This document shows, piece after piece, positions 1 to 62,520 of a DNA stretch of 64,000 bases. The DNA comes from Haliotis cracherodii (Eukaryota), in NCBI RefSeq assembly GCF_022045235.1, contig NW_027266275.1, positions 70,866,001 to 70,930,000 of the forward strand, read 5' to 3'. Every line of letters begins with the position of its first letter. The first letter of the stretch is position 1. The notes beneath the pieces were generated by a model. It made no database searches. It had not been told where the DNA came from and saw only the letters and a program-made list of their open reading frames with translations. Both the position numbers and the translations under genes were made by a program.

Positions 1-262
1 TTCTGTACCATCTAGTATACTATTGAGTATGCCTGTGTAAAAGTAAGTAAAACAATGCTTGCGTTGTATGTGCATATCAACAAGTTTCTGTACCATCTAG
101 TATACTATTGAGTATGCCTGTGTAAAAGTAAGTAAAACAATGCTTGCGTTGTATGTGCATATCAACAAGTTTCTGTACCATCTAGAAAGCTATTGAGTAT
201 GCCTGTGTAAAAATAAGTAAAACAATGCTTGCGTTGTGTATGCATATCTACAAGTTTCTGTG
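1..262. repeat. 85-bp tandem repeat, ~3 copies (truncated by window start)
   Basis: ttctgtacc recurs at 1, 86 and 171. Confidence 0.92.
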
Positions 263-653
263 CCACATAGACCCATCCACAACTGGTCAGACTATTTTCA
301 GATACATATTCAGCATATGGAAGACTACAATGAATGCAACATGGTCTATATATCAATCAATCGTTTTAATCATGTTTTTCGCCACACACCTGTCTAAACA
401 CGTCGTAACTGCCCGAGACGCCTAGATACATACATATGCCAAGCTTGTTAGAATAGACAATCTTGAAAACAAATACTCCCGTCTTTATCGACATTTTTAT
501 ACATTGTAGCATCTTTCTGGTTCTATCATTGCATAAATATGTACAATAACATTTGGTCCAAAATCAACAAGGGAGACAATAGTAGTTAGCAAGAGAATGT
601 AAACGGCTGACATACCTATCAAAACTATGCATATTTCTACTTAAGTAAATAGA

Positions 654-903
654 CCCGTGAAGATTCAGCAACTCATGCTTACCATAAAAGGCGACTATGC
701 TTGTCGTAAGAGGCGACTAACGGGATCGGGTAGGCAGGCTCACTGACATGGTTGATGCATGTCATCGTATCCCAATTGAGTGGATCGATGCTCATGGTGT
801 CAGTCACTGGATTGTCTGGTCCAGACTCGATTATGTACAGACCGCCGTCATATAGCTTGAATATTGCTGAGTGAGGCGTTTAACAACAAACAAACCAAAC
901 AAA
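654..903 (+). mobile_element. Structured-head retroposon copy (duplicated-hairpin subfamily)
   Basis: Same family as 20190-20428, with an (aaac)n tail. Confidence 0.85.
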
Positions 904-964
904 CTTAATTGAGTAATACATGCCGTGTGAAGTTACCAGTTCCTGGCAACTTGGTCACCAACAA

Positions 965-2340
965 GTGTTTCATCATACAAAGGTACACATTTACTGAAAG
1001 GTGTTTCATCACACGAAGGTACCTAGTTACTGAAAGGAGTGTCATCACACGAAGGTACCTAGTTACTGAAATGTGTTTCATCACACGAAGGTACCTAGTT
1101 ACTGAAAGGAGTGTCATCACACGAAGGTACCTAGTTACAGAAATGTGTTTCATCACATGAAGGTATCTAGTTACTGAAATGTGTTTCATCACACGAAGGT
1201 ATCTAGTTACTGAAAGGAGTGTCATCACACGAAGGTACCTAGTTACTGAAATGTGTTTCATCACACGAAGGTACCTATAGCTAGTTACTGAAAGGAGTGT
1301 CATCACTCGAAGGTACCTAGTTACTGAAATGTGTTTCATCACACGAAGGTATCTAGTTACTGAAAGGAGTGTCATCACACGAAGGTACCTAGTTACTGAA
1401 ATGTGTTTCATCACACGAAGGTATCTAGTTACTGAAAGGAGTGTCATCACACGAAGGTACCTAGTTACTGAAATGTGTTTCATCACACGAAGGTACCTAG
1501 TTACTGGAAGGAGTGTCATCACACGAAGGTACCTAGTTACTGAAATGTGTTTCATCACACGAAGGTACCTAGTTACTGAAATGTGTTTCATCACACGAAG
1601 GTATCTAGTTACTGAAAGGAGTGTCATCACACGAAGGTACCTAGTTACTGAAAGGAGTGTCATCACACGAAGGTACCTAGTTACTGAAATGTGTTTCATC
1701 ACACGAAGGTACCTAATTACTGAAATGTGTTTCATCACACGAAGGTATCTAGTTACTGAAAGGGGTGTCATCACATGAAGATACTTAGTTACTGAAATGT
1801 GTTTCATAACACGAAGGTACCCATTTATTGAAAGGTGTTTCATCACACGAAGGTACCTAGTTACTGAAATGTGTTTCATCACACGAAGGTACCTAGTTAC
1901 TGAAAGGAGTGTCATCACACGAAGGTACCTAGTTACTGAAAGGAGTGTCATCACTCGAAGGTGACCATTTATTGAAAGGAGTGTCATCACACGAAGGTAC
2001 CTAGTTACTGAAATGTGTTTCATCACACGAAGGTACCTAGTTACTGAAAGGAGTGTCATCACACGAAGGTACCTAGTTACTGAAAGGAGGGTCATCACAG
2101 GAAGGTACCCATTTATTGAAAGGAGTGTCATCACACGAAGGTACCTAGTTACTGAAATGTGTTTCATAACACGAATGTACCTTGTAACTGAAAGGAGTGT
2201 CATCACACGAAGGTACCTAGTTACTGAAAGGTGTTTCATCACACGAAGGTACCCATTTATTGAAAGGAGTGTCCTCACACGAAGGTACCTAGTTACTGAA
2301 ATGTGTTTCATCACACTAAGGTACCTAGTTACTGAAAGGT
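965..2340. repeat. 36-bp minisatellite A (~38 units, two interspersed variants)
   Basis: Unit catcacacgaaggtacctagttactgaaa(tgtgttt|ggagtgt). Confidence 0.95.
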
Positions 2341-3786
2341 GTGCCCTCACATGACGTTACCCAGTTACAGATATGTGTGCCACCATATGATGTAACCAAG
2401 GTACGGTCAGGTGTGCCCCCACATGACGTTACCCAGTTACAGATAGGTGTGCCACCATATGATGTCACAAAGGTACGGTCAGGTGTGCCCTCACATGACG
2501 TTACCCAGTTACAGATAGGTGTGCCACCATATGATGTCACCAAGGTACGGTCAGGTGTTCCCCCACATGACGTTACCTAGTTACAGACAGGTGTGCCACC
2601 ATATGATGTCACCAAGATACGGTCAGGTGTGCCCTCACATGACGTTACCCAGTTACAGATAGGTGTGCCACCATATGATGTCACCAAGGTACGGTCAGGT
2701 GTGCCCTCACATGACGTGACCCAGTTACAGATAGGTGTGCCACCATATGATGTTACCAAGGTACGGTCAGGTGTGCCCTCACATGACGTTACCCAGTTAC
2801 AGATAGGTGTGCCACCATATGATGTCACCAAGGTACGGTCAGGTGTGCCCTCACATGACGTTACCTAGTTACAGACAGGTGTGCCATCATATGATGTCAC
2901 CAAGGTACGGTCAGGTGTGCCCTCACATGACGTTACCCAGTTACAGATAGGTGTGCCATCATATGATGTCACCAAGCTACGGTCAGGTGTGCCCTCACAT
3001 GACGTTACCCAGTTACAGATAGGTGTGCCACCATATGATGTCACCAAGTTACGGTCAGGTGTGCCCTCACATGACGTTACCCAGTTACAGATAGGTGTGT
3101 CACCATATGATGTAACCAAGGTACGGTCAGGTGTGCCCCCACATGACGTTACCCAGTTACAGATAGGTGTGCCACCATATGATGTCACCAAGGTACGGTC
3201 AGGTGTGCCCCCACATGACGTTACCTAGTTACAGACAGGTGTGCCACCATATGATGTCACCAAGGTACGGTCGGGTGTGCCCTCACATGACGTTACCCAG
3301 TTACAGATAGGTGTGCCACCATATGATGTCACCAAGATACGGTCAGGTGTGCCCTCACATGACGTTACCGTGTTACTGATAGGTGTGCCATCATATGATG
3401 TCACCAAGATACGGTCAGGTGTGCCCTCACATGACGTTACCCAGTTACAGATGGGTGATTTCACCAAGGTACGGTCAGGTGTGCACTCACATGACGTTAC
3501 CCAGTTACAGATAGGTGATTTCACCAAGGTACGGTCAGGTGTGCCCTCACATGACGTTACCCAGTTACAGATAGGTGTGCCATCATATGATGTCACCAAG
3601 AAACGGTCAGGTGTGCCCTCACATGACGTTACCCAGTTACAGATAGGTGTGCCACCATATGATGTCATCAAGGTACGGTCAGGTGTGCCCTCACATGACG
3701 TTACCGTGTTACTGATAGGTGTGCCACCATATGATGTCACCAAGGTACGGTCAGGTGTGCCCTCACATGACTTTACCCAGTTACAG
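2341..3786. repeat. 36-bp minisatellite B organised as 72-bp dimers (~40 monomers)
   Basis: gtgccctcacatgacgttacccagttacagataggt alternates with gtgccaccatatgatgtcaccaaggtacggtcaggt. Confidence 0.95.
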
Positions 3787-4422
3787 CCAAATGCGCCATC
3801 ACGTGAAGTTCAATAACACCGTGGTTTATGCCGGTTGTTCTCGTCGCTCTGCATCTGTCGAAGTGGAGACCAAGAAACATGATCATTCCTCCGCCAATGC
3901 ATAACGCACCACTGATAAATGTTAAAGAGACGGCCCACGAAGCCGTGACAGTTCCTTGACTTGCCAGAAACATTATACACGATGCTATCGACAGAAGGCC
4001 TGAAATAAAAATATAATAACACTTTATGTACATGTATATAAAATAATGTACCATTACAATGTTTTAGTAATATGCATTCAAGAATGACTATTGCAACAAT
4101 TAACAACAATATGGAGATATTAAAGAAAACAAGTATATCTTACCTGGGAAAATAGGAAAGACGGAGATGACGGCATTTTCTGACTGCAGTCGTTTAGAGT
4201 ATGTTGTACAATTGTGTAGGAAGATAATGTAGACTGTTAGGATGGAGAATGTGAGTGCCATGATGGCCAAAAATCTCACACCCTGAAACATAGCTGAAAC
4301 CAAAACAGATCAATACTGAGAAATACCATGAGTTGTTGATATGTATGGTTTTACTAACGATACCATATTTTCCATCTTTTCATCTCTCACTCGAATTTCA
4401 ATTCTCTCTCTCTCTCTCTCTC

Positions 4423-4453
<31 letters not shown>

Positions 4454-5381
4454 GCTCTCTAGCCTTAATACAACTTAGATTTTCTGCAACAGAAAAATAA
4501 GCGATTCTTGTCTGAAATCAAACCAAAACATGAAAGATCAGTAACCTCTGACCAAGTTGTGACATCGCTGACGGAATGTACACAAATCTGAAGATGATAT
4601 TATCTAACCAATGCCACTTGTTGACTAGAAGTCATCAATGTCTGCACCCGGACTATGGTACAATCATTCTTAAGCTGGTTTAAACATGTCCCTGCAAGAT
4701 GTACAGTTGTAGAAGGCACGCGGACATAAACCATATGAGAGTCCATTTATTGATTATGGTGTAATCCTATGTATCGTTCAATTCTAAACGATCCCTTGCA
4801 CTGAGTCCCACTAAAGTATCATATAAGCATCTGGCACATCCTAACTCGTTACACTTAGGAATATTGTAAATTACAGTATAACTCCCGTGAAACACAGATG
4901 CATGTCAGTACTTCGGATATATAGATTAAAGAGCAATCGTCAGATCCTTCGCGTTACTATAAATAGAGTCCAAGATGGCGCAGCCATATTACATCAACGG
5001 AGTAATTTGTGACCTGTTTACAAGTGACAACAACGCATAAGGATGCACATATACACGGCGATGTGTAGGTAGATAATACTCGTTTCAACAGATGCAAAGC
5101 CATCACTTAGCGCGTAAAATAAAACTGAAAAACCACAAAGATTCCGTTTCTCTCAAACACTTACGATCCACGGTCACAAATGGTTTGCACCGTGTCCATC
5201 CTTCACACTGCAGCCACAACCCAGACGTGGTGTGACTCCTCTGTTGGTAGTCGACCATGTAGTAAAGGTACGTATGTTTCCAAGTGGGTACACTGAACGC
5301 TATCAGGTATCCGAGACATCCCAGAGTAGTGCACACAGTCCCAAGGTGGTAGGTATGGCATTTCTCTCGCCAGTGTGGCAT
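3773..5381 (-). CDS. Claudin/PMP22-like tetraspan protein, paralog 1 (~197 aa); exons 5381-5165, 4293-4144, 3999-3773
   Basis: Starts MPHWREK. The first loop has the W...GLWLQC-x4-C claudin-superfamily signature, and there are four hydrophobic segments. Both introns are GT-AG and phase 1 (c|gtaag, tttcag|ct; g|gtaag, tttcag|gc). Exon structure matches two paralogs in the window. Confidence 0.88.
4403..4460. repeat. (CT)n microsatellite
   Basis: Seen directly. Confidence 0.9.
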
Positions 5382-6583
5382 TTCGGAAACGTTCACAGTC
5401 TACATAGGGAATAAGCTATCCTTGTAAACATTTTTTTTTCTCCAGTGAAAGTGGTACGGCTTGCAATAACTGGCGTTGCAGATCCATTTATGGCCATCGA
5501 TTCTTTCGTACATGCGTCATTCCGTGAGTCAAATATTTAAATCGGTCAAACGACTTCCGAAAATTAAAGCTCCACTATAGGGTAGAATTGTGAAGAATAA
5601 TGTTTTGGAACTTTGAACAGTATTTCGATTGTATCACACTATGTGACTATAGTTTGGGAGGGAATCCCGAAGTGATGCCAGCCTTGGACCTGTTTCCACT
5701 TTGGTGAAACCCACGGGTAAGGTGCTGACAGTCTTAGAAACATAGTCAAGTCGAATCTGGGATTCGAACCGACGATCATTAGTTTCTGGCGTGCATATAG
5801 GACACAACTCTGCACAGCGAATTGTGCCAGTTATTTCATATATGAACAACTCTTGAATTCGAATTAATTAACACCGTTAACCACTTTGTCCCGATAGGGC
5901 TGAATTACTGCCGATGTGACTATAAATCCTAACTTACAAACTCAACTCAGTAAAACACAAGCGTGTATTTCTTGGTTCATCACACAGAAGACACTACACA
6001 AGACACGATGAGATCTGTATCATGACTGATATAGACTGAAATATCGGGATATACATGTATGTGTTTTTATTGCATAGTTCTATCAGCATCCATATATCTT
6101 CACGGGACACATTCACTTTGTTTGCGTTTTAAGAGGTCAAGCATCACATACAAAACAAATCGTTTGATAACAGCAAAGCCTATGTAAACAAAGTAAGCAA
6201 AGACTACGTACTACATTATACGGCTATGTCACGCCAACCGAGTGTTAAAAGGGGCGGAATAATCAATATTTTGTTTTCCAGTAAATGTCAGTTAAACTAC
6301 AAACCCCATTTCATTTAATTCGGCAAAGACCTCCCATCCCTCATCCGGGCGCCTCCCATTCCCCATCTCGACGCCTCAAGTTCAGTTCCGCTAGGTGTAT
6401 TGTGAAATACGCCACCCGATCAGCTTGCATTAAATAATGACCGCTGACCCAGGCGGGATTTTGATAACAATCGTGCGAAGCGGTTATGCAGTTACTGCCG
6501 AGCTTTTGGTAACTATTTCCTCTACACCATATCGCCACTCTATTTACATGGCTATGGCTTGTGACGAAATACACACTTCGAGG

Positions 6584-8739: not shown

Positions 8740-9634
8740 TGCGATTTTATAGTGCTAGCCCACTGAGATACCATGCCGCAGTTTATCATGAATACCCCAC
8801 AGTATAGTGACACCGAGCCAACCAGTTCTTGTTTTAGCTCCTTTAATGCCAAACGCCAGTCAGGGTAACAACAAGTACCATATTTTAACGTCTTTTGGTA
8901 TGATGCGGCCGGTGTCTTAACGTGAAGCGTTAACCAGAACAATTGGTGCCCTGTGTGATGCACCACTTATCCGGACCGTACTGTGCCACGTTAGGTCGTC
9001 TGGATTAACGAATTTTTTTATGGAGAAATGTCCCTCTTAATATAGGTACGCGTTTCTAAGAGTAATCGTCCAGAAGGTACGGTATCCAGATTAGCGGTGT
9101 CCGGATTAGTGGGGACAGGGCAAACATGATTTTAATGTACTCGTCCGTTATAATGTCGATCATGTTTGTAAGATGCAATCAATATATTAGCTTTACATTT
9201 GTGATTACCTCTAATATGCGTAAGGGAAAACATGGCCTCGTGGTCTAGGCTGATGGAAGACGGTGTGCAGAGTCGTGTCCCTTTGACGTATCTGGATTTT
9301 ATGTTCGTGGATTCACACAGGTTCACTACTGTTAAAAGCGGCGTTAAAACCAACTCACTCACTCAAATAGGTTCACCCTGATTATGTTTTCAGGTTTTCA
9401 CGTCTAAGACCTGCATGACTGCGCGGTTTCTGTGGGTATTGATTTGGCATTATTGTGAAATATGAGTTTGGTATACAGTTTACAAGCGCACAAAGCCTCA
9501 CACTGATTGGAGTGGTCAGCTAGCTATACTATGTTACCGAATATGTACTGGCTTATTTCACCTTCTATTTCCGTAGTGTGATTAAAGAGAAAAAAGAAAA
9601 TATTTTTATCAGCAGGATCAACAGTATTAAAAGT

Positions 9635-12330
9635 AGGGGCGATAGTAGTAACAGTATGAGCGACAGTAGTAACAGTTGGAGCGACAGTAGTAACAGTAAG
9701 AGCGATAGTAGTAACAGTAGGATCGACAGTAGTAACAGTAGGAGCGACAGTAGTAACAGTAGGATCGATAGCAGTAACAGTAGGAGCGACAGTAGTAACA
9801 GTAAGAGCGATAGTAGTAACAGTATGAGCGACAGTAGTAACAGTTGGAGCGACAGTAGTAACAGTAGGATCGATAGTAGTAACAGTAGGAGCGACAGTAG
9901 TAACAGTAGGATCGATAGTAGTAACAGTAGGAGCGACAGTAGTAACAGTTGGAGCGACAGTAGTAACAGTAGGATCGATAGTAGTAACAGTAGGAGCGAC
10001 AGTAGTAACAGTAGGATCGATAGTAGTAACAGTAGGAGCGACAGTAGTAACAGTAGGAGCGATAACAGTAACAGTAGGAGCGACAGTAGTAACAGTAGGA
10101 TCGATAGTAGTAACAGTAAGAGCGATAGTAGTAACAGTAGGAGCGACAGTAGTAACAGTAGGATCGATAGTAGAAACAGTAGGAGCGACAGTAGTAACAG
10201 TAGGATCGATAGTAGTAACAGTAGGAGCGACAGTAGTAACTGTAAGAGCGATAGTAGTAACAGTAGGATCGACAGTAGTAACAGTAGGAGCGACAGTAGT
10301 AACAGTAGGATCGATAGCAGTAACAGTAGGAGCGACAGTAGTAACAGTAAGAGCGATAGTAGTAACAGTAGGAGCGACAGTAGTAACAGTAGGAGCGATA
10401 GCAGTAATAGGAGCGATAGCAGTAACAGTAGGAGCGATAGTAGTAACAGTAGGAGCTATAGTAGTAACAGTAGGATCGATAGCAGTAACAGTAGGAGCGG
10501 TAGCAGTAGCAGTAGGAGTAATAGTTGTAACAGTAGGAGCGATAGCAGTAACAGTAGGAGCGATAGCAGTAACAGTAGGAGCTATAGCAGTAGCAGTAGG
10601 AGCGATAGTAGTAGCAGCAGGAGTGATAGTTGTAACATTAGGAGCGATAGCAGTAGCAGTAGGAGCGACAATAGTAACAGTAGGAGCGATAGCAGTAGCA
10701 GTAGGAGCGATAGTAGTAGCAGCAGGTGTGATAGTTGTAACAGTAGGAGCGATAGCAGTAGCAGTAGGAGCGAAAATTGAAACAGTAGGAGCGATAGCAG
10801 TAGCAGTAGGAGCGATAGTAGTAACGGTAGGAGCGATAGTAGTAACAGTAGGAGCGATAGTAGTAACAGTACGAGCTATAGCAGTAGCAGTGGGAGCGAT
10901 AGTAGTAGCGGTAGGAGCGATAGTAGTAACAGTAGGAGCGATAGCAGTAACATTAGGATCGATAGTAGTAATAGGAGCGATAGCAGTAAGAGTACGAGCT
11001 ATAGCAGTAGCAGTAGGAGCGATAGCAGTAACAGTAGGAGCGATAGCGGTAACATTAGGAGCGATAGTAGTAATAGGAGCAATAGAAGTAACAGTACGAG
11101 CTATAGTAGTAACAGTAGGATCGATAGCAGTAACAGTAGGAGCGATAGCAGTAACAGTAGGAGCGATATTAGTAGCAGCAGGAGTAATAGTTGTAACAGT
11201 AGGAGCGATAGTAGTAACAGTAGGAGCGATAGTAGTAGCAGAAGGAGTAATAGTTGTAACAGTAGGAGCGATGGTAGTAACAGTAGGAGCGATAGTAGTA
11301 ACAGTAGGAGCGATAGCAGTAACAGTAGGAGCGATAGTAGTAGCAGAAGGAGTAATAGTTGTAACAGTAGGAGCGATAGCAGTAGCAGTAGGAGCGATAG
11401 CAGTAACAGTAGGAGCGATAGCTGTAACAGTAGGAGTGATAGTAGTAACAGTAGAAGCGATAGCAGTAGCAGTAGGAGTAATAGCAGTAACAATAGGAGC
11501 GATAGCAGTAGCAGTAGGAGTGATAGCAGTAACAGTACGAGCGATAGCAGTAACAGTAGGAGCGATAGCAGTAGCAGTAGGAGTAATAGTAGTAACATTA
11601 GGAGCGATAGCAGTAGCAGCAGGAGTGATAGTAGTAACAGTAGGAGTGATAGTAGTAACAGTAGGAGCGATAGCAGTAACAGTAGGAGCGATAGTAGTAG
11701 CAGCAGGAGTGATAGTAGTAACAATAGGAGCGATAGCAGTAACAGTAGGAGCGATAGCAGTAACATTAGGAGCGATAGCAGTAGCAGCAGGAGTGATAGT
11801 AGTAACAGTAGGAGCGATAGCAGTAGCAGTAGGAGCGATAGCAGTAGCAGTAGGAGTAATAGTAGTAACATTAGGAGCGATAGCAGTAACAGTAGGAGCG
11901 ATAGCAGTAGCAGCAGGAGTGATAGTTGTAACAGTAGGAGCGATAGTAGTAACAGTACGAGCTATAGCAGTAACAGTAGGAGCGATAGTAGTAACAGTAC
12001 GAGCTATAGCAGTAACAGTAGGAGCTATAGCAGTAACATTAGGATCGATAGTAGTAATAGGAGCGATAGCAGTAACAGTACGAGCTATAGTAGTAACAGT
12101 AGGATCGATAGCAGTAACAGTAGGAGCGATAGCAGTAACAGTAGGAGCGATAGCAGTAACAGTAGGAGCGATAGTAGTAACAGTAGGAGCGATAGTAGTA
12201 ACAGTAGGAGCGATAGTAGTAGCAGCAGGAGTGATAGTTGTAACAGTAGGAGCGATAGCAGTAACAGTAGGAGTGACAATAGTAACAGTAGGAGTAAAGA
12301 CAGTAACATTATGAGCAACAGTAGTAACAT
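9635..12330. repeat. 21-bp purine-rich minisatellite (~2.7 kb)
   Basis: Unit agtagtaacagtaggagcgat and variants, built from (agt/agc) triplets. Confidence 0.95.
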
Positions 12331-13688
12331 TTGTAGTATTTGTTTGTGTGTTTTCAACCTCTCAATGAGGGGCGGTGGCATAGTCGAGTTGTTAAAACGT
12401 CTAGTCACGCCGATGACCCGGATTCGATTCCCAGCATGGCGACAAAACCATACTTACTCTCCTTCCTACCTGATCCGTGATCAATGGCCCGTTTCGCCTC
12501 AATGGGTGGTAAATACGCATATTCTCTCTTGAATTTGTATCCTCCCGGATAAAACCTACCCGAGCCACCCGTGAGTGAAATGAAATTGTAGCATGAAACG
12601 CAAACGACAGGAAACAAGTGTAGAATAATCATTGTATTAACAAGTATCATAATGTACACAAACTGTATTCATAACAAATATAAACAATGTAATACAAGTG
12701 AGAAAACAATGGCCGCTCCCGATAAAACTAGCAGCCGATACTTGTTGCGCTTATTGAAGAGACTTCGGTAATTAGATTATCGTAAATACAGGCCTGCAGG
12801 ATGATGTACAAGCGATTAACATTACCACTGCATCAGTGATTTGGCAAAGGATCATCTACCCATCCTCTCACACACTCTGTGAATTAATTTTCAAGTACTA
12901 ACGCACTATTTTTACCTTGACAAAAAATATACTTTATTGGTCGAGGGCGACACTTTCGCCCGTGAAACACTAGCCACGGAACCCGGGAACCGTGGTATCA
13001 TGTGCAAATGCTGCCAAGGGATATTCGAAGACACTACGATCGAGATTGATTCCATACGTTTCACTACTCTTGAATGGACGGAAACATTTATATTTCCTTA
13101 TTCCGTCTCACTGTCAAATACCCTGCGAAGATCCGGGTTACACATGCTCTTCATGATCAGCAACCCGTGCTTGTCGTGTGAGGCGACGAACGTTGCTGGT
13201 GATGTCAGTCACTTGATTATCTTATTGCGTAAAACAGCAAACAAACAAACATTGTCAAATATCCATTACGAAAAACACCTAAATATATTCTGCTGCGATC
13301 GCCCTTAGTGCGATGGTGATATTCGGTATGACAAATGCTGATATGTAATTATCTTTGGCGTGAAGTGACAGTTCTATCAATAACATGACTTTATGACCCA
13401 TCAGAGTTGTCAGGTAACATTGATAAATGCTATTCAGGAATGATTATTTATACCCCTGCAAAGCCATCGTCTTTCCAAATCACCACAGTAATATTACACC
13501 TTGAAATACGGTTTCTCGTGTCTCAATACACATGGGTCCTGATGCATCGCTGATGGAAGCGTTGTTTTGCACGGTTGACTGTGGCAGTGTTTTTGAATGT
13601 TCACCAGAAGATCAGTGGAAAGAAGCACTGTTAAGAGATAGTCATTTCCATGACAATCCCTTAGAGGTTGTGGTGTGAAAGAGGTTTA

Positions 13689-14773: not shown

Positions 14774-17700
14774 TCAGTAGTAAAGGAAGTCAGGGTCGGG
14801 CGGTGGGGCAGATGGGTCTAGTCTCGGTTGTTGATCCACCTGTGTCGCTAGATGTGGAACAGTGTTTGTACTCGAGGCAATAGAAGAAACTTGCGTATTT
14901 GCCTGTGACCGATCAGAAGGAATGGCGTCCATAGGAATTGCCATTGCCGTCATGTCTGGGTTGAAGGCAGTCTGGCCATGGAGATATGGATTTGCAGTAC
15001 GTTCAGTTCTCGTTGCTCTACGCCTGTCAAAATGTAACCCCAAGCACATGAACATGCCTCCAGCTATTGTACAACAACTGCTGCTGACTCCGAGTATGAC
15101 GCCCCAGGCGATGGTGCTTATCCCTTGGTGTACAACACATGAAGCCAGGGAGAGAAGACCTGGAAATGAAAGTACACCTATTACGCACATACCTACGTAT
15201 TATCTATTGATTCCATGGTACATGGCACAGTTTGATGTCATGATGACCTGATAACATTAGATCGAATACAACTTTAGAATAACAAATTTATATTGTTCAT
15301 TTATCTGTAATCAGGACTTTATCGTGGCACCATTGACGTCATATAGCAAGGGACATCAGCTATGGTGTATTTAATGGCAACAGAACTTTAGAAGAGAAAA
15401 TATTAAATTGTAAAATTTGTATTTTGTTACTCTAAAACTGCTAAGTCAATACTTTTCATGTTGAAAAGTACAAGAAAAAAAGTTCATTTTCGTGTCATGT
15501 TACACATACTGAAATAATATATTAGGCTTTCTGCAAACAATAGAACCAATTTAAACAAAGCAATCTTAAGGCTACGGTTGTGTTGCAGTGATTCAAAAAC
15601 ACATGCTTATGTGGAAAAGGCCATGTTGCTTTTATTTGCAAGTATGTCCGTAAATACATTAAGTTAATTTTTTGTGTACAAACCTAGTCGTGTCTACTAT
15701 CAGCTTTACTGTCAGGAATGTGGTTTCCTACCTTTCAACATCGACATTTAAATAGTAACTAACATTGCCAAGGACTAATAGCTATTCATATCCGTGTCTG
15801 TCACACTGGTTAAAAAAGACCAAAAGATAGAATGTCCACAAATATTCGATCATGTGTCTGTGTAGTCTTACGGCTCACTTATTCAGGCCCAAACCACGGT
15901 GTCATCTAAGACTCGAGGTACACCGTTGGTGTGTAGCATGATACACGACACACGCCGATAACATGGTAGGAACCCGAATGTTTTAACTTTAACGTGGAGC
16001 ACAAGTTGTTTGTTATCGAACTTCACCATCTTTTCAGATGTCTATGTCTGTAATTTATGATTTGTTTGTATATTGTTTATCGCCGCACTCAACAATATTC
16101 CAGCTATATGACGGCGGTCTGTAAATAATCGAATCTGGACCACACAATCTAGTGATTGACATCACGAACATCGATCCACTCAAATGGGATACGATGATCC
16201 CGTTAATCGCCTCTTACGACAAGCATGGTTTGCTGAAGATCAGTGTGAGATTTTTTTATCATCCAACATCATTCTTCCAACTTTTTCAGTTTGTAGACAG
16301 TAATAAGTAGTGTCTTAAGTGTAAAAAGTACTGCTAACAGCTTCAGTAGCAGAGCCATTAGTGATGTCATTTGATTGTGACGTCATGGTAACCAATGACG
16401 TCACAATGGTCTGCAAAGCATTGTGATGCAATTTCGTTGCAGCAATTATCATATCTACAGTGTAGGGTTGCGTTGCAAAGCGCCAGTCGCTTGTAGGCGA
16501 TGTACAGCGATTCGCCGTACAACAGTGCGCTAACTTTCAGCCGCTTGCAAGCGAAACAATCGCTGACTGAGGTCGCTTCGTTCTCAAACCAAAATGGCGG
16601 CTAACTTTGACAGCAGAACAAGGAATTTTAAACTGGATCAACGAGAAAATGAGCAAAGGTAGCTAACACACCATCATCCTCAGTCTGCTCCACATCTTCA
16701 AGTAGTCATAAATTTCATCAGCTCGTCATCGAGCCTCTTCTATTACGTTCTTCATTACGCGGATGGTCAGGCTCGCTGACATGGTTGATGCATGTCATCA
16801 TATCCCAATTACGTGGATAGATGCTCATGATGTCAATCACTGGATTGTCTGGTCCAGACTCGATTATTTACAAACCGCCGTCATATAGCTGGAAGATTGC
16901 TGAGTGCGGCGTTTAACAACAAACAAACAAACGTCAAGGCAACCAACCGGTAGTTGCGCCGCCATTTTGGAATAGTACGCAAGCGCTTCGAACTGTTGCA
17001 GACCCCGGGTTGAGCGGTGAATTTGCTTTCTCTAAGCGATTCGTGGCTTGCAACGCGCCCTAGATATCGCTTGATCTTACCCAAGCGATATCTCCTGTGT
17101 AGCCAGTTTTGGATGATAAATATATGTACAGTAATGGAATGTGTTTGAAAAAATCGGGATATTGTATCCTGCGTCTTTGTAGTCTCCTGTTTGTCTTTGT
17201 TTTCCTACATTTTCTAGAGGAAGAAAATTGAACCTGTGGCCCAGTCGCCTCTTACGACAAGCATGAAGGCCTATTTTAACCCGGATCTTCACGGGCGGAC
17301 ACATCCTAATGTGAATATTAACCGCATGCGTGTGTGAAGAGAAATTCATTCAAATATGTTAACCTACTATCTGAAAATCCTCGTCTTGTGAAGCATTATT
17401 TTTTATTCTTTAATGAAAACTGATCAATGATTATGTGATCACAGTCGGATAGTCAACAGTAATGAGTTATGTCAGGTTGAAATGTGTTTCGATCAGCTCA
17501 GCTGAGGTGAATGTTAGGAACATATTATGAGAATGTTAGGAATATATTATGAGAATGTTAGGAACATATTATGAGAATGTTAGGAATATATTATGAGAAT
17601 GTTAGGAATATATTATGAGAATGTTAGGAACATATTATGAGAATGTTAGGAACATATTATGAGAATGTTAGGAATATATTATGAGAATGTTAGGAACATA

Positions 17701-20700
17701 TTATGAGAATGTTAGGAACATATTAGGAGAATGTTAGGAACATATTATGAGAATGTTAGGAACATATTATGAAAATCGTACCACAAAAAACGGGGAACAC
17801 AGAGACGAAGGCATTTTCTGACTGAAGACTTTTTGAGTAGGCTGTGCAGTTATGGAGGAAGATGAGACACAGCGAGATGAAGCAGAAAGCCAGAGCGATG
17901 CACGCCAGCACTCTGGATACTAGGAGCGACGCTGGAACAAAGACATGCTTTAAGATACACGTTAAATCAATAGCTGGTTCGGAAGAGTAAGGACGTACGT
18001 AAATATGTAAACGATTTTTTTATGCAGTGCGAATGATCGACATTAGTTCAATAGACATAAACATCTTCAGACAAATACATGAAAGTGAAACCTGGGACGT
18101 GAATTGTCGTACTCTTTCATAATAGTTAAGTAATAAAGTAAAAAACATGTAAATGGTCTTCAAAGAGCGTCATACGACTCTTGCTCAGAAGTTTTTGATC
18201 AAGGTTACAACATTCAAGGCCTCAGTAAAGTTTTCAAAAGTTTTATGGTAGACATGTGCAGGACATTTCCAAATTTGACGCATCAGTGACAAAAATGATG
18301 TCAGATGCAATTCCCCATTTTAACTTGTACCATATGTTTCCGTGTATTTTCAGCTGAACAATGGACTTGCCTTTGCATGTATTTGTGATGGGTGCCACCG
18401 GTGGGGCAGGATACGGTCACCTTTTCGCGTACACCTGGTATCATAACTTTTTGATTGTGATTCATACAAATGCTCATGATATCGTCGGAATTGTACAATC
18501 GACGCTGCTTTGTGCAGAGATTTCTATTGGATATGGAAAAAGTTTTGTCGCTTTATTGCAATCAATTCTAGGCGATGGGGTAGCCGAGTGGTTCAAGCGT
18601 TTGGTCGTCACGTTGACTGCCCGGGTCGTTCCCTACATGGGGACAATGTGTGAAGAACATTTTAAGTGTCCCCCGGCCTAATATTACTGGAATATTGCTA
18701 CAACAGGCGCAACAGCATACTCACTCCAAGAAATTGGATTTTGAAACGTAAAACTAAAATAATAGATTACAATCTTTACCGTTGATGGTCAAACCAACAA
18801 AGACGTAGTTTATGCATTACACAGAAAGTAATTATACCATTCCCAGAACGTCTTGACCTAAGTTGACGTGCAATATTACGTGGGTGAGTCTCGGTGCATG
18901 TAATGATATTGAAGGTAAAAAATCAGAAAGTAATTCAAACATCACGTGAAAGAACACTTACAGCGTTCTTATCAGAGCAGGTGTTTTTCCGGTCACGTAC
19001 AGGTACACGTCTGTAATTATCATCCTGGCGCTATGCCGTGTTTTCTCTAATGAGCGCCACCTGCAGTCACCTATATAGTAACTACGGGTATGACGAACTT
19101 AAAGGGGCCACTCATTCAGTTCGTTATAACCGTAGTTCATAATAAGCATATATACCGTAAATAGTCGAGACCATAAACAGTTCGTTATATCCGTCAGTAC
19201 GTTATAATCGCGTTTGTTATAAACGTAGTTTATTGTAATGACCTATGATCCATAGGAAGACTTTCTGTAAATAATCGAGTCTGGACCAGACAACCCTGTG
19301 ATTGACATCATGAGCATCGATTGATCTGCGTGTGTGTGTGTGGCTGTTTGTACCTGTCCGGACAAAATGCCGGTTTTATAGTGCCAGCCCATTGAGATAC
19401 CATGCCGAGGTTTAATATTATATATAATAATAATGTGGGTACTTATATTGCGCTAGCCTCCATACACTCGCTGCATGCTCAAAGCGCTAACAATATTACC
19501 CCGGGCGTTGGATCAGTGTGCACTCGAGTTTCATTCTCAGCTTCATGGGGAGTATACAACCCAAGCTGCCCTGGCGCTAGAAGGTTAACAGTCACATTTC
19601 CATCTCATTCCACCGGGTTCCCATTTTGTACTGCTTGGTGAACTGGGGCGCTTTTCGAACAATGTCACTTGCCTCAGGAGGTTTAACCCTTTCATGTGTG
19701 TATAGATGAAACCTGTATTGAATTTGCACAAAAACTGTATTGTACACCATAACAACGGATTCTATTCATACCGGTTCAACTAGCAATACAATATTTCTGA
19801 ATAAATTTATGGGGAGGAGTGAGTGGTTAGGGCTGAGGCGGGAAAGAATGAACACTGGGCCTCCAATAAACTACCCGGGGTATATATTTTGGCTGATACG
19901 GTAAGAATCACGTGGATATTGACTCTGCCTCAGGAAACACATTTCAATGAGGTTTATCAATCTGATAATACTGTGCAAATATAAATTGATATATGGATTA
20001 CGCTAGTGTCACTTGAGACACGTGTGGCAGATGAATAAAGTCTGACTCATCCTTGTGGTTTTGTTGCACAGAGGAAGTTTGAGATGCTGGACAGTGCAGA
20101 AATTAGCTTCAGGTGCACGAACAAAGGAAGAGTTTTAAGTTTACGTAATCGAGCCATGATGTTACGGATGCGTGGCTCTGGCTGCCTAAGTTTGTTTGTT
20201 TGTTGTTTAACGCCGCACTCAGCAATATTCCAGTTATATGACGGCGGTCTGTAAATAATCGAGTCTGGACCAGACAATCCAGTGATTGACAATGAGCATC
20301 TATCTACGTAATTGGGATACGATGACATGCATCAACCAAGTCATTGAGCCTGACCACCCGATCCCGTTAGTCGTCTTTTACGCAAGCATGGGTTGCTGAA
20401 GACCTATTCTACCCCGGATCTTCACGGGTGTGACCGCCTTACGGATACTGCCTATAGCACACGTGTATATGAAGTTTTGTCTTTCGGGAATACAATATTA
20501 TATGCTAAATTTATTCTAAGCAGAAATGTACCCTTTGGGATTCCGGGTTAATACTGGTCGTAAGAGACGACCTAATGAACCGGATAGTCAGGCTTGCTTA
20601 ATTGTCTGTCGTCGTATCGCGACGGCGTGGAATGTTGCCCATACAAATCACTTGATTGTCTGGTCCATATTTTTTGCATATAGCTGGAATATGGAGGCAG

Positions 20701-23237
20701 CAACATTGCTTACATTGCTTGCCACACACAGGCATCATTGATAACTATGACTACACATAGAATTTATATGGTGGCCACGATATACACATCCATTTTAAGA
20801 ACTAATGTAGGTATACTATTGATTCATGAAATAATGTATTTAAATGGAAATTGGGGCTGTGTTTCTCCTCATACAGATATCTATTTTCTTACTTGCTTCT
20901 AAAACAAGTGAGTGAATGAGTGAGTATGGTTTTACGCCGCGTTTAGAAATATTCCAGCAATATCACGGGGGGTGATATCGGACTTCACACATTGTACTCA
21001 TGTGGGGAATCGAACCTTGGTCTTCATGATGAGACAACGTTTTAATTACAAAGAAATGTATACTGCAGAGTGAGATTTGAGAGCTGTTAATCATTGACTC
21101 ATTAACTGCATGAGTTTTCAACACGTGACAACCCTCCGCATGACGCGACGTGTCACACTGTGTGTGATGATAACCTCTAATGGCTGTAGGGAACCGATTT
21201 CTCAACCCAATCCTCCTCACCCCCAACACACTGTCCGCTCTACCCCCACCACATACCCCCTACATTCCCCCAAGCCCCACCCTCACAGACCCCTACCCCA
21301 ACCCCCACATACCCCTACCCCACACGCCATGTCAGCTTCTATCAAACCGACGGCCATATTTGTACCTGCAGACTACGAACTCTGCTATGCGTTCACTGTG
21401 TGTCGATGATCGACAATGTTAATGACTATGTGCTGTTGTTGCTTCGGTATCCATGACGGATTGTGCATTCGTCGTATGTCTAAAGAAATGACACCTATAA
21501 GTAAACATTTCTGTCACGTTTCATGGTACGTATTCAGAATGTTAAGCTTAAATAAGATATTAAAATGGGCTCCAGTACACAGTAAAATTTAATTGTACCT
21601 TCACGTAAATAATTGAATGCGAACAAAAACTCCTACCTATCAACTTCACAAGCCTTTATTGTTCACTGAACGTTAAACCTACACTAATTGTGACTAAGAA
21701 GGAATGTTTGAGATGCCATACGCTGATTATTAAATGTTACACCCATGTTTGCTATACACACTGTCATACTTGTGTGCCTGCTCGTGTCCGTTTGACGGTC
21801 AGACCGCGCCTTCGACTGGCGTCATCAAAAACATGACTTTATTAGTATCTCCCTGTTTCTGTTGACAAGCTAGAGTGTCCATGTTCCTGGCTGCACGTTA
21901 AGGGGGGAGCATAATGGAAACATATATCGGAGACATGAGTGAGTGAGTGAGTTGTGTTTAACGCCGCTTTTAACAGTATTCCAGTTATATCGCGGCGTGT
22001 CAGCTTAATGTGGGAGGAAAGCCCGAAGTGATGCACGTCTCAGACGTTTGTCACTTCGGTGAAACCCACGAGCACGAGTATGGTGCTGACAGACCTAGAA
22101 ACATAACGGAGACATGATCCCTACTGGCACACATTAGGCACCTAGTCCAAAATAATAGTCCCGTTATGACAATCAAACCTACTTCCATCTTCAGTTTTCA
22201 AAAGATACTTTTTCTTTTACAGTGTGAAATAGAATTTTGTTTTCTTCACTTTTTCGGTTTTTTTGGATTCGATAATTGACTTGCCCTTGCGTGTTTTTGT
22301 TCGGTGGGGTAGAATAAGGTCAACTATTCGCGAACACTTGGTGTCATCACTATTTAATAGTGGTCCCTAAGCACATGCTTAAGATATAGTCAGAATGTAC
22401 CCTGTTTCAGCTTTTGGGACAGCTTTCTCATTGATTATTGAACTAATTTTTGTCGCCATTTTTATAAGAATTAAAATGAGTTCACTTGACAGTAAATTCA
22501 ATTAACGAGAACCAACAGTCATAAATTTCCATACTTTGTAGAGCAGGATTGATGACCTTTTTGACAACACTTGCTGTCATCACTGATTTTCAGTGATCCA
22601 TTCATATACTTGTCAACGGCTCAGCGCTATTTTGCTTTTCACCAATGGAATCTGTTTTGTCGGAAAGTCGAGATATGTTTTTCTCTTGCGTTGGCGGTTA
22701 ATATATTCAATCATTTGGGAATGAATCACACAAAACTCAAATATCTATTATTAAAAAACACCAAAATGAACAGAGTCTACACATGAAAAATAATGAAAAT
22801 TGATACGGATGTAAAACTATGGTAAAACGTCAATCATGATCACAGAACAGGAAAATGCTAGCGTTCATTATTACATGTATGTGCCAGATGTGGGAAAAAA
22901 GAAACAAAATAGATCGGTTATGACAATCACAGCCTATTATCGACATTGTTATTTTAGGTACCACGGACGTGTATTTTTAATTAACATTTGAATAATATTA
23001 AATTATTATGATAACTTTATACTTACTATCCCCTTCTACCAAAGTATACGTCCGGCAGTTGGTAAGTCCATCACACATGTGTTGCCACAATCCGGAGTAT
23101 AGCACAGGTGTGTTACCATCCCCACCTTCACGATTCCACGCAGGGACTCCAAAAGCTACGGTAAATCCTACAAATCCGAGGACCATAACACCCAACCCAG
23201 AGCGGTACAAGCCCCCCTTTTCCGCCCAGTGGGGCAT
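14774..23237 (-). CDS. Claudin/PMP22-like tetraspan protein, paralog 2 (~248 aa); exons 23237-23027, 17931-17782, 15159-14774
   Basis: Exon 1 reads MPHWAEK...W...GLWQHMC-x4-C. The 150-bp exon 2 is not in the ORF track; it reads SLLVSRVLACIALAFCFISLCLIFLHNCTAYSKSLQSENAFVSVFPVFC, homologous to paralog 1 exon 2 (IFLHNCTTYSKRLQSENA). Exon 3 shares GLHFDRxRATRT with paralog 1. Introns are phase-1 GT-AG. Confidence 0.88.
16466..17060. mobile_element. PIF/Harbinger-like MITE carrying a retroposon fragment
   Basis: Imperfect TIRs ggttgcgttgcaa and ttgcaacgcgccc, flanked by tag on both sides. Confidence 0.5.
17509..17772. repeat. 22-bp minisatellite x12
   Basis: Unit gaatgttaggaa(c/t)atattatga; it begins 10 bp inside intron 2 of claudin-like paralog 2. 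Confidence 0.95.
18155..18556 (+). mobile_element. Penelope-like retroelement 3' fragment (RT thumb at ORF end; possibly Naiad-type); second copy ~36855-37200
   Basis: Frameshifted FKERHTTLAQK..DQGYNIQGLSKVFK.FYGRHVQDISKFDASVTKMMSDAIP, followed by a shared 3' segment. Two similar copies lie in the window. The clade assignment is from memory. Confidence 0.55.
19425..19680 (-). mobile_element. CORE-like SINE fragment with L2-type tail
   Basis: The minus strand reads cctgaggcaagtgac...cagttcaccaagcagtacaaaatggg...agcgctttgagca...gcgcaatataagt(att)n. Confidence 0.6.
20190..20428 (-). mobile_element. Non-tRNA-headed SINE-like retroposon (~240 bp) with structured 5' end, full length
   Basis: Begins cccgtgaagatcc and ends gctggaatattgctgagtgcggcgttaaac(aaac)n. 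More than 10 copies occur in the window. Confidence 0.85.
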
Positions 23238-32791: not shown

Positions 32792-35700
32792 TCATGCGGA
32801 TCCCCTCATGGCTTCCTCATAGCTAGGAGGAGCGTCAGCGAAGTCGGGCGGTTTTATGAAGGAAGCGTCTTGAAAGGCTGGGTTAACCATTGGGCCTCCA
32901 GATCCTTCCCAGTAGGCAAATCCGGCAGAGCCACCTGGCGGCAGGTTCATTCCCGTGGACCAGGTCTGCATCCTGTTGGCCGGGGGAGTAGCAGGACGTC
33001 CCCGTCGTGAACACAGGAGGCAGGCACTCAGTATCATCATGGCGTTCCCCAAAACCGCCAAGGCGAACCCCCAGGACAAGCTGGCGTTGTTCCGAGACAC
33101 CAGCAGCTGTGTCCGTATAGCGTAAATGGAGGAGGCGATGATCCCAGTGATACCTTCGGAGAAAACGTCACATGGATTAGCTGCTTAAAACAAGAACTTG
33201 TGAAGGTATTCACAGGTTTAATGTGAAATCAACAATAGTAACAAGACCTGTACTATATAGCAAGAAATTTTGAAGGTATTCACAGGTTTAATGTGAAATC
33301 AACAATAGTAAATAGTACCTGTACTATATAGCAAGAAATTAATGCGTCAACAAATGCATGCTAGTAACAACCTAATCTAAAATGCGTTATGAAGTTAATG
33401 CGAAATTTAAAAACGCTCTTTCATTAATAGTCAAACTACAGCACCAAGAATGAAGACTTGAAATCATGTGAGTTATCAGCAGTTCGACTGAATGGTAGCG
33501 TTTTCGTTTCTCACTAACATAACTTCACTCACTTGACATGTGGTCTAACTCCCATGACTGTATTAAAATGTATTGGTTAGTATGGGGTGAGGTGATGTGA
33601 AATGGGGTGAGGTGATGTGAAATGGGGTGAGGTGATGTGAAATGGGGTGAGGTGATGTGAGGTGATGTGAAATGGGGTGAGGTGATGTGAAATGGGATGA
33701 GGTGATGTGAAATGGGGTGAGGTGATGTGAAATGTGGTGAGGTGAGGTGAAATGGGGATTAACGTCGCGTTCAAGATTATTCCATTTATATAGCGACGCG
33801 CATGTACGTGTGTGTGTTTGTGTGGCTGCTTGTACTAGTCCGGACTGATGCCGATTTATAGTGCCAGCTCACTGAGATACCATGCCGCAGTTTAACATGA
33901 ATACCCTACTCAGACACAGTATACCGACTCCGAGCCGACGTTGTTTTAGCCCCCTAGCCGAGCGCCAGACAGTGCGCCAACAAGTACCATCTTTTAACAT
34001 CTTTTGGTATGACGCGGCCGGGAATCGAACCCCGGACCTTCCGCTCTCCGGGCGGACGCTCTACCTCTAGACCACGGAGGCGGTCTGGTTAGTATGAAGA
34101 GTTAGGGGAACACCTTCTTGATTATAAAGATGTTTGATGTCATTTTGAAATTTGAAAATACCCTGTCATTACCATCTAATAATCCATATATAAACAGGCA
34201 AATGTCCCCGGGTTCCGGGAGTGATAATATGTACTGGGGCAATACTAACAGTACTTATTTATCCTCCAAACCTTTCAAGCAATCATCAAATGAAATCCAT
34301 TTGGCAATACCCTGTGCCCCTCGCTAAGATAAAACATGTATATGTCTAAACAATGACGAAATCTCATCACCCTCGAGCATTAACGTTCGGTCCGGCTCCG
34401 TGATGAAGTATTTAAAATATACTGGTATGTCAACACGCCCCGTAGTCGGGCACAAACATATCCATTGTGTTCAAGGTTGCCCCGAAACAATTTCCTTGTC
34501 ACAGTCATCGCGATCCTATCGGCTACAGTATACATTAATTTGTCATAATATGAAATGTGGTATTGTTCTTGTCGTCGCACGTTAAAGCGTGGATTGTCAC
34601 AAGCAGACAAAGCAAACATTTGAAAAAAATACACGTGGCTCTGTTCAAACATGACATTCAATTTCACTCAGACATGTCCAGCAAAAGGGTTGATTATCAA
34701 TACCGGCATGTCCTAAAAGGTTTTTCTTATTAAAACATGTACAGTGCGCTTCAACATGTCGACTGTGTTGTTTAGAGTGATGGCGTGGCCGCTTGGCATG
34801 TGGAAGTTCCAGGTTTCAAATGTCTATTGTTGATATGTGTGCCCACCAACGTGATGTCCATAGTTACAAACATGTTGCAATAAATAGTCTCGTGCCCTTG
34901 TCGTGGATGAGGAAGAAATGTGAGTGACTATTGCTTTACGCCGCTTTTAGCAATATTCCAGCAATGTCAATGCGGGGAACACCAGAAACATGTTTCACAC
35001 ATTGTACCCACGTGGGGTATCGAACCCGGGTCTTCAGCTCGGCTTCGACGAGCGAACGCTTTAACCACTACCGTACCACCCCTGCACGAAGAGGACTGGT
35101 CACAATGGGTGCTGAATAAGGGTAGCACTGTGGTACGGGGATCGCGGGACGCCTGCAGTGACCTGGCTGGAGGGGTCTATGGTAATTGTCTTTTGTCATT
35201 GCGTCATCTTTTATTTCCATTTCCATTCAATGCCTAATTTTTAAATATCTTATTTAAATTTCAAATTAGACATATGCATGTACATATATTATATTTAGCT
35301 GATTATTTTGCAATTGTTGTTTAACGCCGCACTCAGCAATATTGTAGCTATATGACGGCGGTCTGTAAATAATCGAGTCTGGACCAGACAATCCAGTGAT
35401 TGACATCATGAGCAATTTGGATACGATGACATGCATCAACCAAGTCTGCGAGCCTGACCACCCGACCCCGTTAGTCGCCTCTTACGACAAGCTTAGTTGC
35501 CTTTTGCAATGAGATAGGAGAAAACACTGATTTAATATAAATACCCTTACATTTCTTTTTAAATGTTATTGCATTGTGGGACGATAGCCTTTAATACTGG
35601 CTACATCTGTCTGTGGGGTAGCCTTGTGGTTAAAGTATTCGCTCGTCACGCCGAAGACCCGGGTTTGAATCCCGACATGGGTACAATGTGAGAAGCCTAT

Positions 35701-48012: not shown

Positions 48013-48104
48013 CATTGTTTGACAACTGAGGGTACATCGTTATTTTTGTTTACATTTGCAAAACTTTGGATTATACGTTGTTATCAACCTTGGAGTTTAT
48101 CGCA

Positions 48105-53932: not shown

Positions 53933-54328
53933 ACCTCAGATCCAGGGACACTTTCATCTGTTGCTCCGGCGGGAGTTGCAGGTGTCCACATCCCGGCGAG
54001 GATGAACCTCAGATCCAGGGACACTTTCATCTGTTGCTCCGGCGGGAGTTGCAGGTGTCCACATCCCGGCGAGGATGAACCTCAGATCCAGGGACACCTT
54101 CATCTGTAGCTCCGGCGGCAGTTGCAGGTGTCCACATCCCGGCGAGGATGAACCTCAGATCCAGGGACACTTTCATCTGTTGCTCAGGCGGGAGTTGCAG
54201 GTGTCCACATCCCGGCGAGGATGAACCTCAGATCCAGGGACACCTTCATCTGTAGCTCCGGCGGGAGTTGCAGGTGTCCACATCGCGGCAAGGATGAACC
54301 TAGATCCAGGGACATCTCATCTCTAGCT
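53891..54328. repeat. 73-bp tandem repeat x6 overlapping the IAP stop codon
   Basis: Unit starts at 53891, 53964, 54037, 54110, 54183 and 54256, with a diverged copy at ~54410-54480. Confidence 0.93.
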
Positions 54329-62467: not shown

Positions 62468-62520
62468 GTTGACTGAAATACAGAAAGGAGAAATATATTG
62501 ACATATTGTAATAGCTCATA

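Follow-up and report, generated by a model that had tools for sequence, protein, structure and literature searches.

Introduction

Minisatellites are head-to-tail arrays of units of about 10–100 nt that extend over 0.1–20 kb. In the model of Haber and Louis (1998), as summarised in PMC6947457, they arise from a motif lying between direct repeats of 5–10 bp, and PMC13167724 describes a microhomology-mediated tandem duplication. Here we analyse a tandem array that begins inside the last coding exon of a claudin-like gene of the abalone Haliotis cracherodii (NCBI RefSeq assembly GCF_022045235.1, contig NW_027266275.1, positions 70,866,001 to 70,930,000 of the forward strand; this whole stretch of 64,000 nt is the window below, and coordinates count from its first letter). 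A sequence-only reading of the window, made without database searches, had proposed that the array arose from the terminal codons of this gene or, alternatively, that an ancestral repetitive protein tail was cut by a stop codon that then amplified. Our analysis favours the former. We consider it quite probable that the array is a minisatellite formed from the last 12 codons of the gene by tandem duplication between two 8-nt direct repeats, drifting since then as an untranslated part of that gene's 3′ untranslated region (3′ UTR).

The array resembles both models in that the same 8-nt word stands at its two edges, one 36-nt unit apart in the inferred single-copy state. The later expansion to many copies and the single locus also agree with them. 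The array differs in that a coding sequence's terminal part, stop codon included, would have been duplicated, that the copies lie in the 3′ UTR in the phase of the gene, and that the seed state is a reconstruction. The variable-number tandem repeat (VNTR) of the human SLC6A3/DAT1 3′ UTR, a 40-bp repeat, shares with the abalone array the tandem units of 36–40 nt in an untranslated tail of the messenger RNA (mRNA) and the unchanged protein. In contrast, the abalone array, with 80 units in two blocks and a 72-nt higher-order block over 2.9 kb, is much larger and starts inside the coding sequence. Yeasts and ciliates have tandem (back-up) stop codons, which likewise place additional in-frame stops after the true stop, but these lie within a few codons of it and are argued to be selected, whereas in the abalone array a stop returns at every twelfth codon, carried along by the repeat. 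Moreover, block B, the half of the array next to the gene, has lost the stop in 3 of its 40 units.

Structure of the array

On the minus strand the array runs from 3808 to 927 and holds 80 units of 36 nt over 2.9 kb, the first of which is the last 12 codons of the gene with their stop (Table 1). This gene unit is followed by block B, in which units reading RHVRAHLTVPW and HHMVAHLSVTG, each closed by a stop, alternate, and then by block A, in which TAC takes the place of the stop. The block B readings and the TAC had been given by the sequence-only reading and were borne out unit by unit on the minus strand, and the homology that it saw between the last 36 nt of the gene and both satellites is confirmed. 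The gene unit is identical to the four subtype consensuses at 25, 27, 24 and 24 of 36 nt, and none of 4000 random 36-mers from the window matched any consensus as well when the best rotation was allowed (null maxima 21–22). Unit sequences differ by 25–35% across the array, and block A units are 96–97% alike to their own subtype consensus. Codon 8 encodes Ser in three of the four unit types, as in the H. rubra and H. asinina orthologs, and Ala in the H. cracherodii gene. Older repeat units farther upstream within the coding sequence were not found (P 0.58–0.99 in five of five tests).

A unit length divisible by three keeps the units in the phase of the gene, from which stacked stops and a long open frame follow with no need for selection. 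In-frame stops number 39 between 3775 and 2359, the gene's own and one double TGA TGA included, and the open frame behind them lies in the gene's frame, as had been noticed; it is the only fully open one of the six frames of block A. The layout described earlier, some 40 stacked stops and then an open frame, therefore stands, but the frame has 483 codons instead of the 481 first counted, starting two codons earlier. The indels noticed earlier had been taken as frame-preserving, which is true of a 6-nt insertion in the unit at 1312–1271 and of two 12-nt deletions in block B. The deletions are a single event that was copied (60-bp period), and they lie where no frame is open. The distal unit departs from this rule: it is 50 nt long (982–933) and puts the last junction out of phase, leaving two of three independent indel events that keep the frame. 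Four AATAAA motifs lie within block A, at 2261, 2117, 1973 and 1829.

Pattern searches of the whole genome (1.18 Gb), allowing 2 mismatches for block B, 2 for block A and 3 for the gene end, placed every match inside the array (20/20, 30/30 and 1/1, respectively), and the DNA searches gave one candidate region. The array is thus a single-locus repeat. A dispersed satellite or a part of a transposon, which the sequence-only reading had named as the finding that would overturn its account, is ruled out by these matches, the only one for the terminal 36-mer being in the array. Six of the 21 listed sequence runs were examined. X7 and X8 (organism A), X14 (organism B) and X17 (organism D), which come from three studies, are RNA-like; X10 is a DNA-like run of organism B, and X12 is a run of organism C. 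Block B units occur in contigs of organisms A, B and D, and block A units in those of A, B and C (X7, X14, X10 and X12). An assembly artefact was also rejected, as units and the distal edge occur in contigs of other organisms. With 36-nt units, 80 copies, 2.9 kb and one locus, the array has the dimensions of a minisatellite, and it likely works as a single-locus 3′ UTR minisatellite, a known kind. A literature search of partial coverage found nothing on the locus or on stop-straddling minisatellites, and a metagenome scan for one unit gave no matches, which is uninformative for an animal repeat.

The summed contig depth of block A relative to the flank was about 10× in X7, up to 20× in X12 and 50–120× in X10 and X14, figures that do not represent a copy number. 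At 1002–1053 the summed depth in X10 and X14, relative to the flank, was far above that in organisms A or C, a hint of a larger or more varied block A in organism B and, again, not a copy number.

Origin of the array

The two edges of the array share a word that its interior lacks. Within positions 1–4002 of the minus strand, AACTTCAC occurs only at 3810–3803 and 934–927, and among the 75 full-length units compared (five indel-bearing units were left out) it stands at the homologous place in one, the gene's own. The chance of such a coincidence is about 0.001 within 60 nt on the base composition, a rough and post hoc estimate. The best alignment of the distal edge is to a gene-unit dimer, stop included; its score of 27 was attained by none of 2000 shuffles and compares with 14–22 for the block consensuses. 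Additionally, just two of the 75 units have TTG at codon 7, the gene's own and the distal one, and the organism B contigs that cover the distal edge (927–935) list no difference there. The edges of the array thus keep an old state with TAA, and the TAC of block A therefore looks derived.

The H. rubra and H. asinina orthologs (XP_046557164.1 and XP_067671520.1) have 197 amino acids, the C-terminal HVMAHLSVSG and a stop at the same residue. Judged from these protein sequences, the position of the stop is old and common to H. cracherodii, H. rubra and H. asinina. The paralogs do have longer tails, as had been stated (proteins of 240–273 amino acids against 197), and these tails are non-repetitive. 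Both observations bear on the reverse history, in which a 12-residue repeat expanded within the protein tail, its first unit then acquired a stop that was propagated across block B, and block A is the surviving open part. Such a relic would account for a unit length divisible by three and its agreement with the phase of the gene (a 1 in 3 chance), for block A being fully open in exactly the gene's frame and in no other, and for the two of three indel events that preserve it. However, TAA and gene-like letters lie at the far edge, beyond block A, the orthologs stop at the same residue, and no paralog has a repetitive tail. Block A was recently homogenised and has no synonymous excess, its openness is at chance level (see below), and the distal indel breaks the phase. 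We regard this history, the second option of the sequence-only reading, as very unlikely.

The tails of the paralogs also speak to where the terminal codons came from. When compared to a profile of the paralog tail motif, the last 8 residues were the best of 20 tail positions in all three orthologs (shuffle P ≤ 0.006), a resemblance that gives suggestive support to an origin from the gene end. It is less easily accommodated by a capture, in which a non-coding satellite was already present when the gene, its old tail gone, was extended into the first unit and adopted the TAA there as its new stop. Two results would suit such a capture: the last 11 residues are only weakly similar pairwise to the paralog tails, and tblastn found no paralog-like tail remnant beyond the array (best E 2.9). 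Against this, pattern searches show the repeat to be absent elsewhere in the genome, the last 8 residues fit the paralog profile, and the best placement falls on the paralog motif for four of five paralog sequences with both queries. Capture is, in our judgement, highly unlikely.

An origin from the gene end may have proceeded in three steps. The protein tail would first have been truncated just behind the motif that the long-tailed paralogs still have, and this before H. cracherodii, H. rubra and H. asinina diverged. As the anatomy suggests, slippage or mis-pairing would then have duplicated the 36 nt that separate the AACTTCAC of the coding end from the AACTTCAC lying across the stop, the first copy retaining the stop. 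Because of this retained stop, the protein would be unchanged and the duplication tolerated; translation would terminate at the first TAA. Finally, slippage and unequal exchange would have expanded the array and homogenised local variants, yielding a 72-nt dimer block that kept the stop and a distal block in which the change from TAA to TAC was fixed, with the oldest letters remaining at the edges.

Several points weigh against this account. The alignment used to choose the paralog motif contained the query itself, P exceeded 0.05 in 9 of 10 pairwise tail tests, and the DNA identity of the gene end to the paralog tail motif is just 13 and 16 of 36. A short repeat at the end of an array is indistinguishable from a partial last copy, and the seed state, like the order of truncation and amplification, is one that we infer. 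Nonetheless, the single locus, the 8-mer at both edges, the TAA at the distal junction and the paralog motif resemblance together favour the first option of the sequence-only reading, a satellite derived from the terminal codons of the gene.

Table 1. Features of the array, its flank and its host gene, in window coordinates.
Feature	Position	Strand	Description
Seed unit	3773..3808	-	LHVMAHLAVTG followed by the stop, end of exon 3; 24–27/36 nt identity to unit consensuses
Block B	2357..3772	-	40 units in strict 72-nt alternation; 37/40 with terminal in-frame stop; two shortened by 12 nt
Block A	947..2356	-	39 units, two subtypes irregularly ordered; TAC at codon 12
Stop-free frame	905..2356	-	483 codons, in the gene's frame
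Distal edge	927..946	-	Degenerate unit end, out-of-frame TAA, then second AACTTCAC at 934-927
5′ edge 8-mer AACTTCAC	3803..3810	-	Start of gene unit; likely microhomology arm
Unique flank beyond array	300..664	-	ATTAAA at 370; cover from RNA-like runs; likely the distal part of the 3′ UTR
Dispersed repeat resembling a short interspersed nuclear element (SINE), very high copy	664..900		Directly after the array; 10 blastn matches in window; summed depth 1e5–1e7 in 4/4 runs
Coding exon 1	5165..5381	-	217 nt, ATG at 5381, phase-1 donor; tblastn with H. rubra ortholog and splice dinucleotides
Coding exon 2	4144..4293	-	150 nt, phase-1 donor; tblastn and splice dinucleotides; contig cover in 4/4 runs
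Exon 3, coding part	3773..3999	-	TAA at 3775-3773; exon 2–exon 3 joint in contigs

Probable transcription of the array

The array is likely read into from the gene. In the four RNA-like runs the exons have a depth of 4–15 and the introns a depth of 0, and contigs of X7, X8 and X14 continue from the spliced exon 3 past the stop and on into block B, whose units are 5–50 times deeper than the exons. These spliced mRNA-like contigs place the beginning of the array downstream of the stop, and transcripts ending before the array, the other outcome that the earlier reading had named as adverse, are not what they show. Beyond the array, the distal flank has a depth of 19.1 in X7 (contig 380–703) and 20.8 in X14 (contig 300–664), compared to 11.7 and 14.6 for the exons, and a further X14 contig (817–1001) crosses the array end. 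X7 is uncovered at 924–949 and 300–377, X12 at 534–637 and 924–949, and X17 has no exon 2–exon 3 joint; such holes prove nothing. The array likely lies within a 3′ UTR of at least 3.4 kb that is common to close relatives.

A more cautious view of the distal part is also warranted. No contig bridges the whole array and the contigs carry no strand, so that a single continuous 3′ UTR is a conclusion drawn from its separate parts. The distal cover could come from another transcript, e.g., from a non-coding first exon belonging to the next paralog (its coding part starts about 3.3 kb beyond the window start, at L010:6699), and the four AATAAA of block A could end some transcripts early. Moreover, the RNA status of the runs is a guess made with no RNA record, backed by the splicing and the empty introns.

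An array of the same origin might since have been put to use, its length or its repeated sites being selected for mRNA stability, localisation or translation. Array units are present in all four organisms, A, B, C and D, and 3′ UTR VNTRs can affect expression, as for SLC6A3. However, these organisms are very close (87% of the 31-letter words in exon 3 are common), and sharing between them needs no selection. RNA structure did not exceed that of shuffles in any of three stretches (z −0.34, −0.04 and +0.39), positions 1–6000 gave no Rfam match, and the unit sequences turn over by 25–35% within the array. A selected function of this kind is therefore unlikely in our view, and a 3′ UTR minisatellite that drifts remains the preferred description.

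The open frame of block A

No selection is required to explain the open frame. Shuffled units are stop-free in a given frame in 42% and 55% of cases, and 12 random changes leave the gene unit free of stops in 51%. Among 36 block A units assigned to two types, with one hybrid unit and two that bear indels set aside, the 29 distinct variants comprise 20 non-synonymous and 9 synonymous changes and no stops (P of no stop = 0.29), and the ratio of non-synonymous to synonymous changes fits neutrality (P = 0.54, a low-power test). Another array in the window, at 9623–12329, has one frame open over 902 of 902 codons. The block A frame had no match at E ≤ 0.001 among annotated proteins (7998 candidates of 265–846 amino acids were scored), and two Pfam matches of this frame fell below the cut-off and were taken as noise. 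The 483-codon frame is likely at chance level, an untranslated by-product of the repeat. The array is not a coding tandem repeat: 39 in-frame stops lie between the gene and the open frame.

Whether the frame serves as a hidden tail was considered along several routes, among them splicing, which the sequence-only reading had not mentioned. A minor isoform might splice from the phase-1 end of exon 2 to a TTTCAG in block A, or from a phase-2 GT that straddles the stop to one of the AG sites of block A. Alternatively, the gene unit might be joined to block A in a rare allele. Any of these would place up to about 39 basic 12-residue repeats on a membrane protein. Acceptor-like sites exist. Block A has phase-1 TTTCAG sites, 12 of them with 9 pyrimidines at −15..−4 like the two real acceptors of the gene, it has phase-2 AG sites matching the phase-2 GT at 3776, and it is present in RNA-like contigs. 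However, no joint or loose end was seen at the end of exon 2 or at 3776 in any of the four RNA-like runs (contigs drop rare forms), and exon 2 joins exon 3 in three of them. No protein matches, as above, and no protein-constraint signal was detected. We consider a latent tail extremely unlikely, and we give as little credence to the related proposal that one change from TAA to TAC made block A a new in-frame terminal exon for a claudin-fold protein, or for its first helices.

Translation does not offer an easier way into the frame. UGA-C leaks 3–4% in mammalian cells according to PMC4615788; read-through of 39 stops is negligible. Additionally, 44 AUGs lie upstream of the first AUG of block A. 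The sequence-only reading had suggested that contraction of block B could restore a long tail in some alleles, an idea that finds no support: the first stop belongs to the gene's own unit, and a shorter block B would by itself leave that stop in place. This unit shares an exact run of at most 8 nt with block A.

The host gene and neighbouring features

The host gene has three exons on the minus strand and a coding sequence of 594 nt, or 197 amino acids. The joint between exon 2 and exon 3 appears as a 144-nt skip with CT..AC ends in three of the four RNA-like runs, and contig loose ends at 4293 read on into exon 1 letters in all four. The coding part of exon 3 agrees at 100% with the annotated H. 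cracherodii protein (P0001) and at 89% with an ortholog (P0002). The annotated protein of this genome (156 amino acids) begins 41 codons later than the orthologs, the window frame is open from the ATG at 5381, and an X17 contig extends about 231 nt into exon 1. The annotated N-terminus of P0001 is likely too short.

The PMP22/claudin superfamily has the first-loop signature W-GLW-C-C. In eight of eight aligned family members G54, L55, W56 and C65 are invariant, and the W and the first Cys are also visible. The family profile matches claudin-9 (E 1.7e-6), claudin-4 and TARP gamma-2. The predicted model of the host protein (pLDDT, the predicted local distance difference test score, 68.7) has helices at 2–30, 73–98, 120–137 and from 144 onward and strands at 36–67, which would correspond to four membrane helices and a β-stranded first loop. 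In Foldseek searches with this model, TARPs and claudins matched with template-modelling (TM) scores of about 0.5–0.6. On the predicted fold, the name claudin-like fits the host gene, and TARPs match as well as claudins do. The protein is thus like the PMP22/EMP/MP20/claudin superfamily in profile, fold and the invariant GLW and Cys, and it differs in that P0001 scores 14.4 bits against a curated Pfam cut-off of 26.7 (PF00822 and PF13903 were tested) and in that its relatives, in the searches run here, were found only in Haliotis. PF00822 matches three of the eight family members (best E 2e-9).

Four such paralogs stand in tandem, three within the window and one just before its start (L010). 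The three others, at 14774–23237, 32792–44431 and L010:1766–6699, lie on the same strand and have Pro-rich tail ends (PSAPP, PPSY) that paralog 1, the host gene, does not have. We take PSAPP and PPSY to resemble sorting motifs of the PPxY type.

The surroundings are rich in unrelated tandem arrays. A 21-bp array of about 130 copies at 9524–12361 has several long open frames, among them a minus-strand frame of 945 amino acids with a Thr/Pro-rich, mucin-like repeat; it could be a mucin-like exon or another satellite with a unit length divisible by three. A plus-strand open frame at 53051–53518 contains two in-frame 21-bp coding-like repeats (QIHEQGQ and QITHQNQ types) of coiled-coil-like character and is followed by a 73-bp array at 53890–54322. 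A compound 56/38/94-bp minisatellite lies at L011:852–1701, 20 kb before the window start. As for other frames, that of 352 amino acids at 48030–49088 (plus strand) presumably contains BIR (inhibitor of apoptosis) repeats. The single-exon frame of 495 amino acids at 61028–62515 (minus strand) resembles a beta-1,3-galactosyltransferase, and the fragment at 41948–42259 (plus strand) a mariner-type transposase.

Implications

Our results point to an array that likely drifts as an ordinary repeat and whose origin can be read unusually well; this origin is likely the end of the gene, and a hidden protein tail is unlikely. If the minor isoform nevertheless existed, a new protein tail would have come from the gene's own amplified stop region, by way of a 3′ UTR satellite itself born from the gene. 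The locus also holds a caution for the reading of genomes: a unit whose length is a multiple of three automatically yields stacked in-frame stops and long open frames. On the most likely reading, it is a worked example of the birth of a minisatellite, in which the seed, the flanking microhomology, the turnover of sub-families and the untouched edges can be read together, and in which the end of a gene would be a tolerated place for such births.

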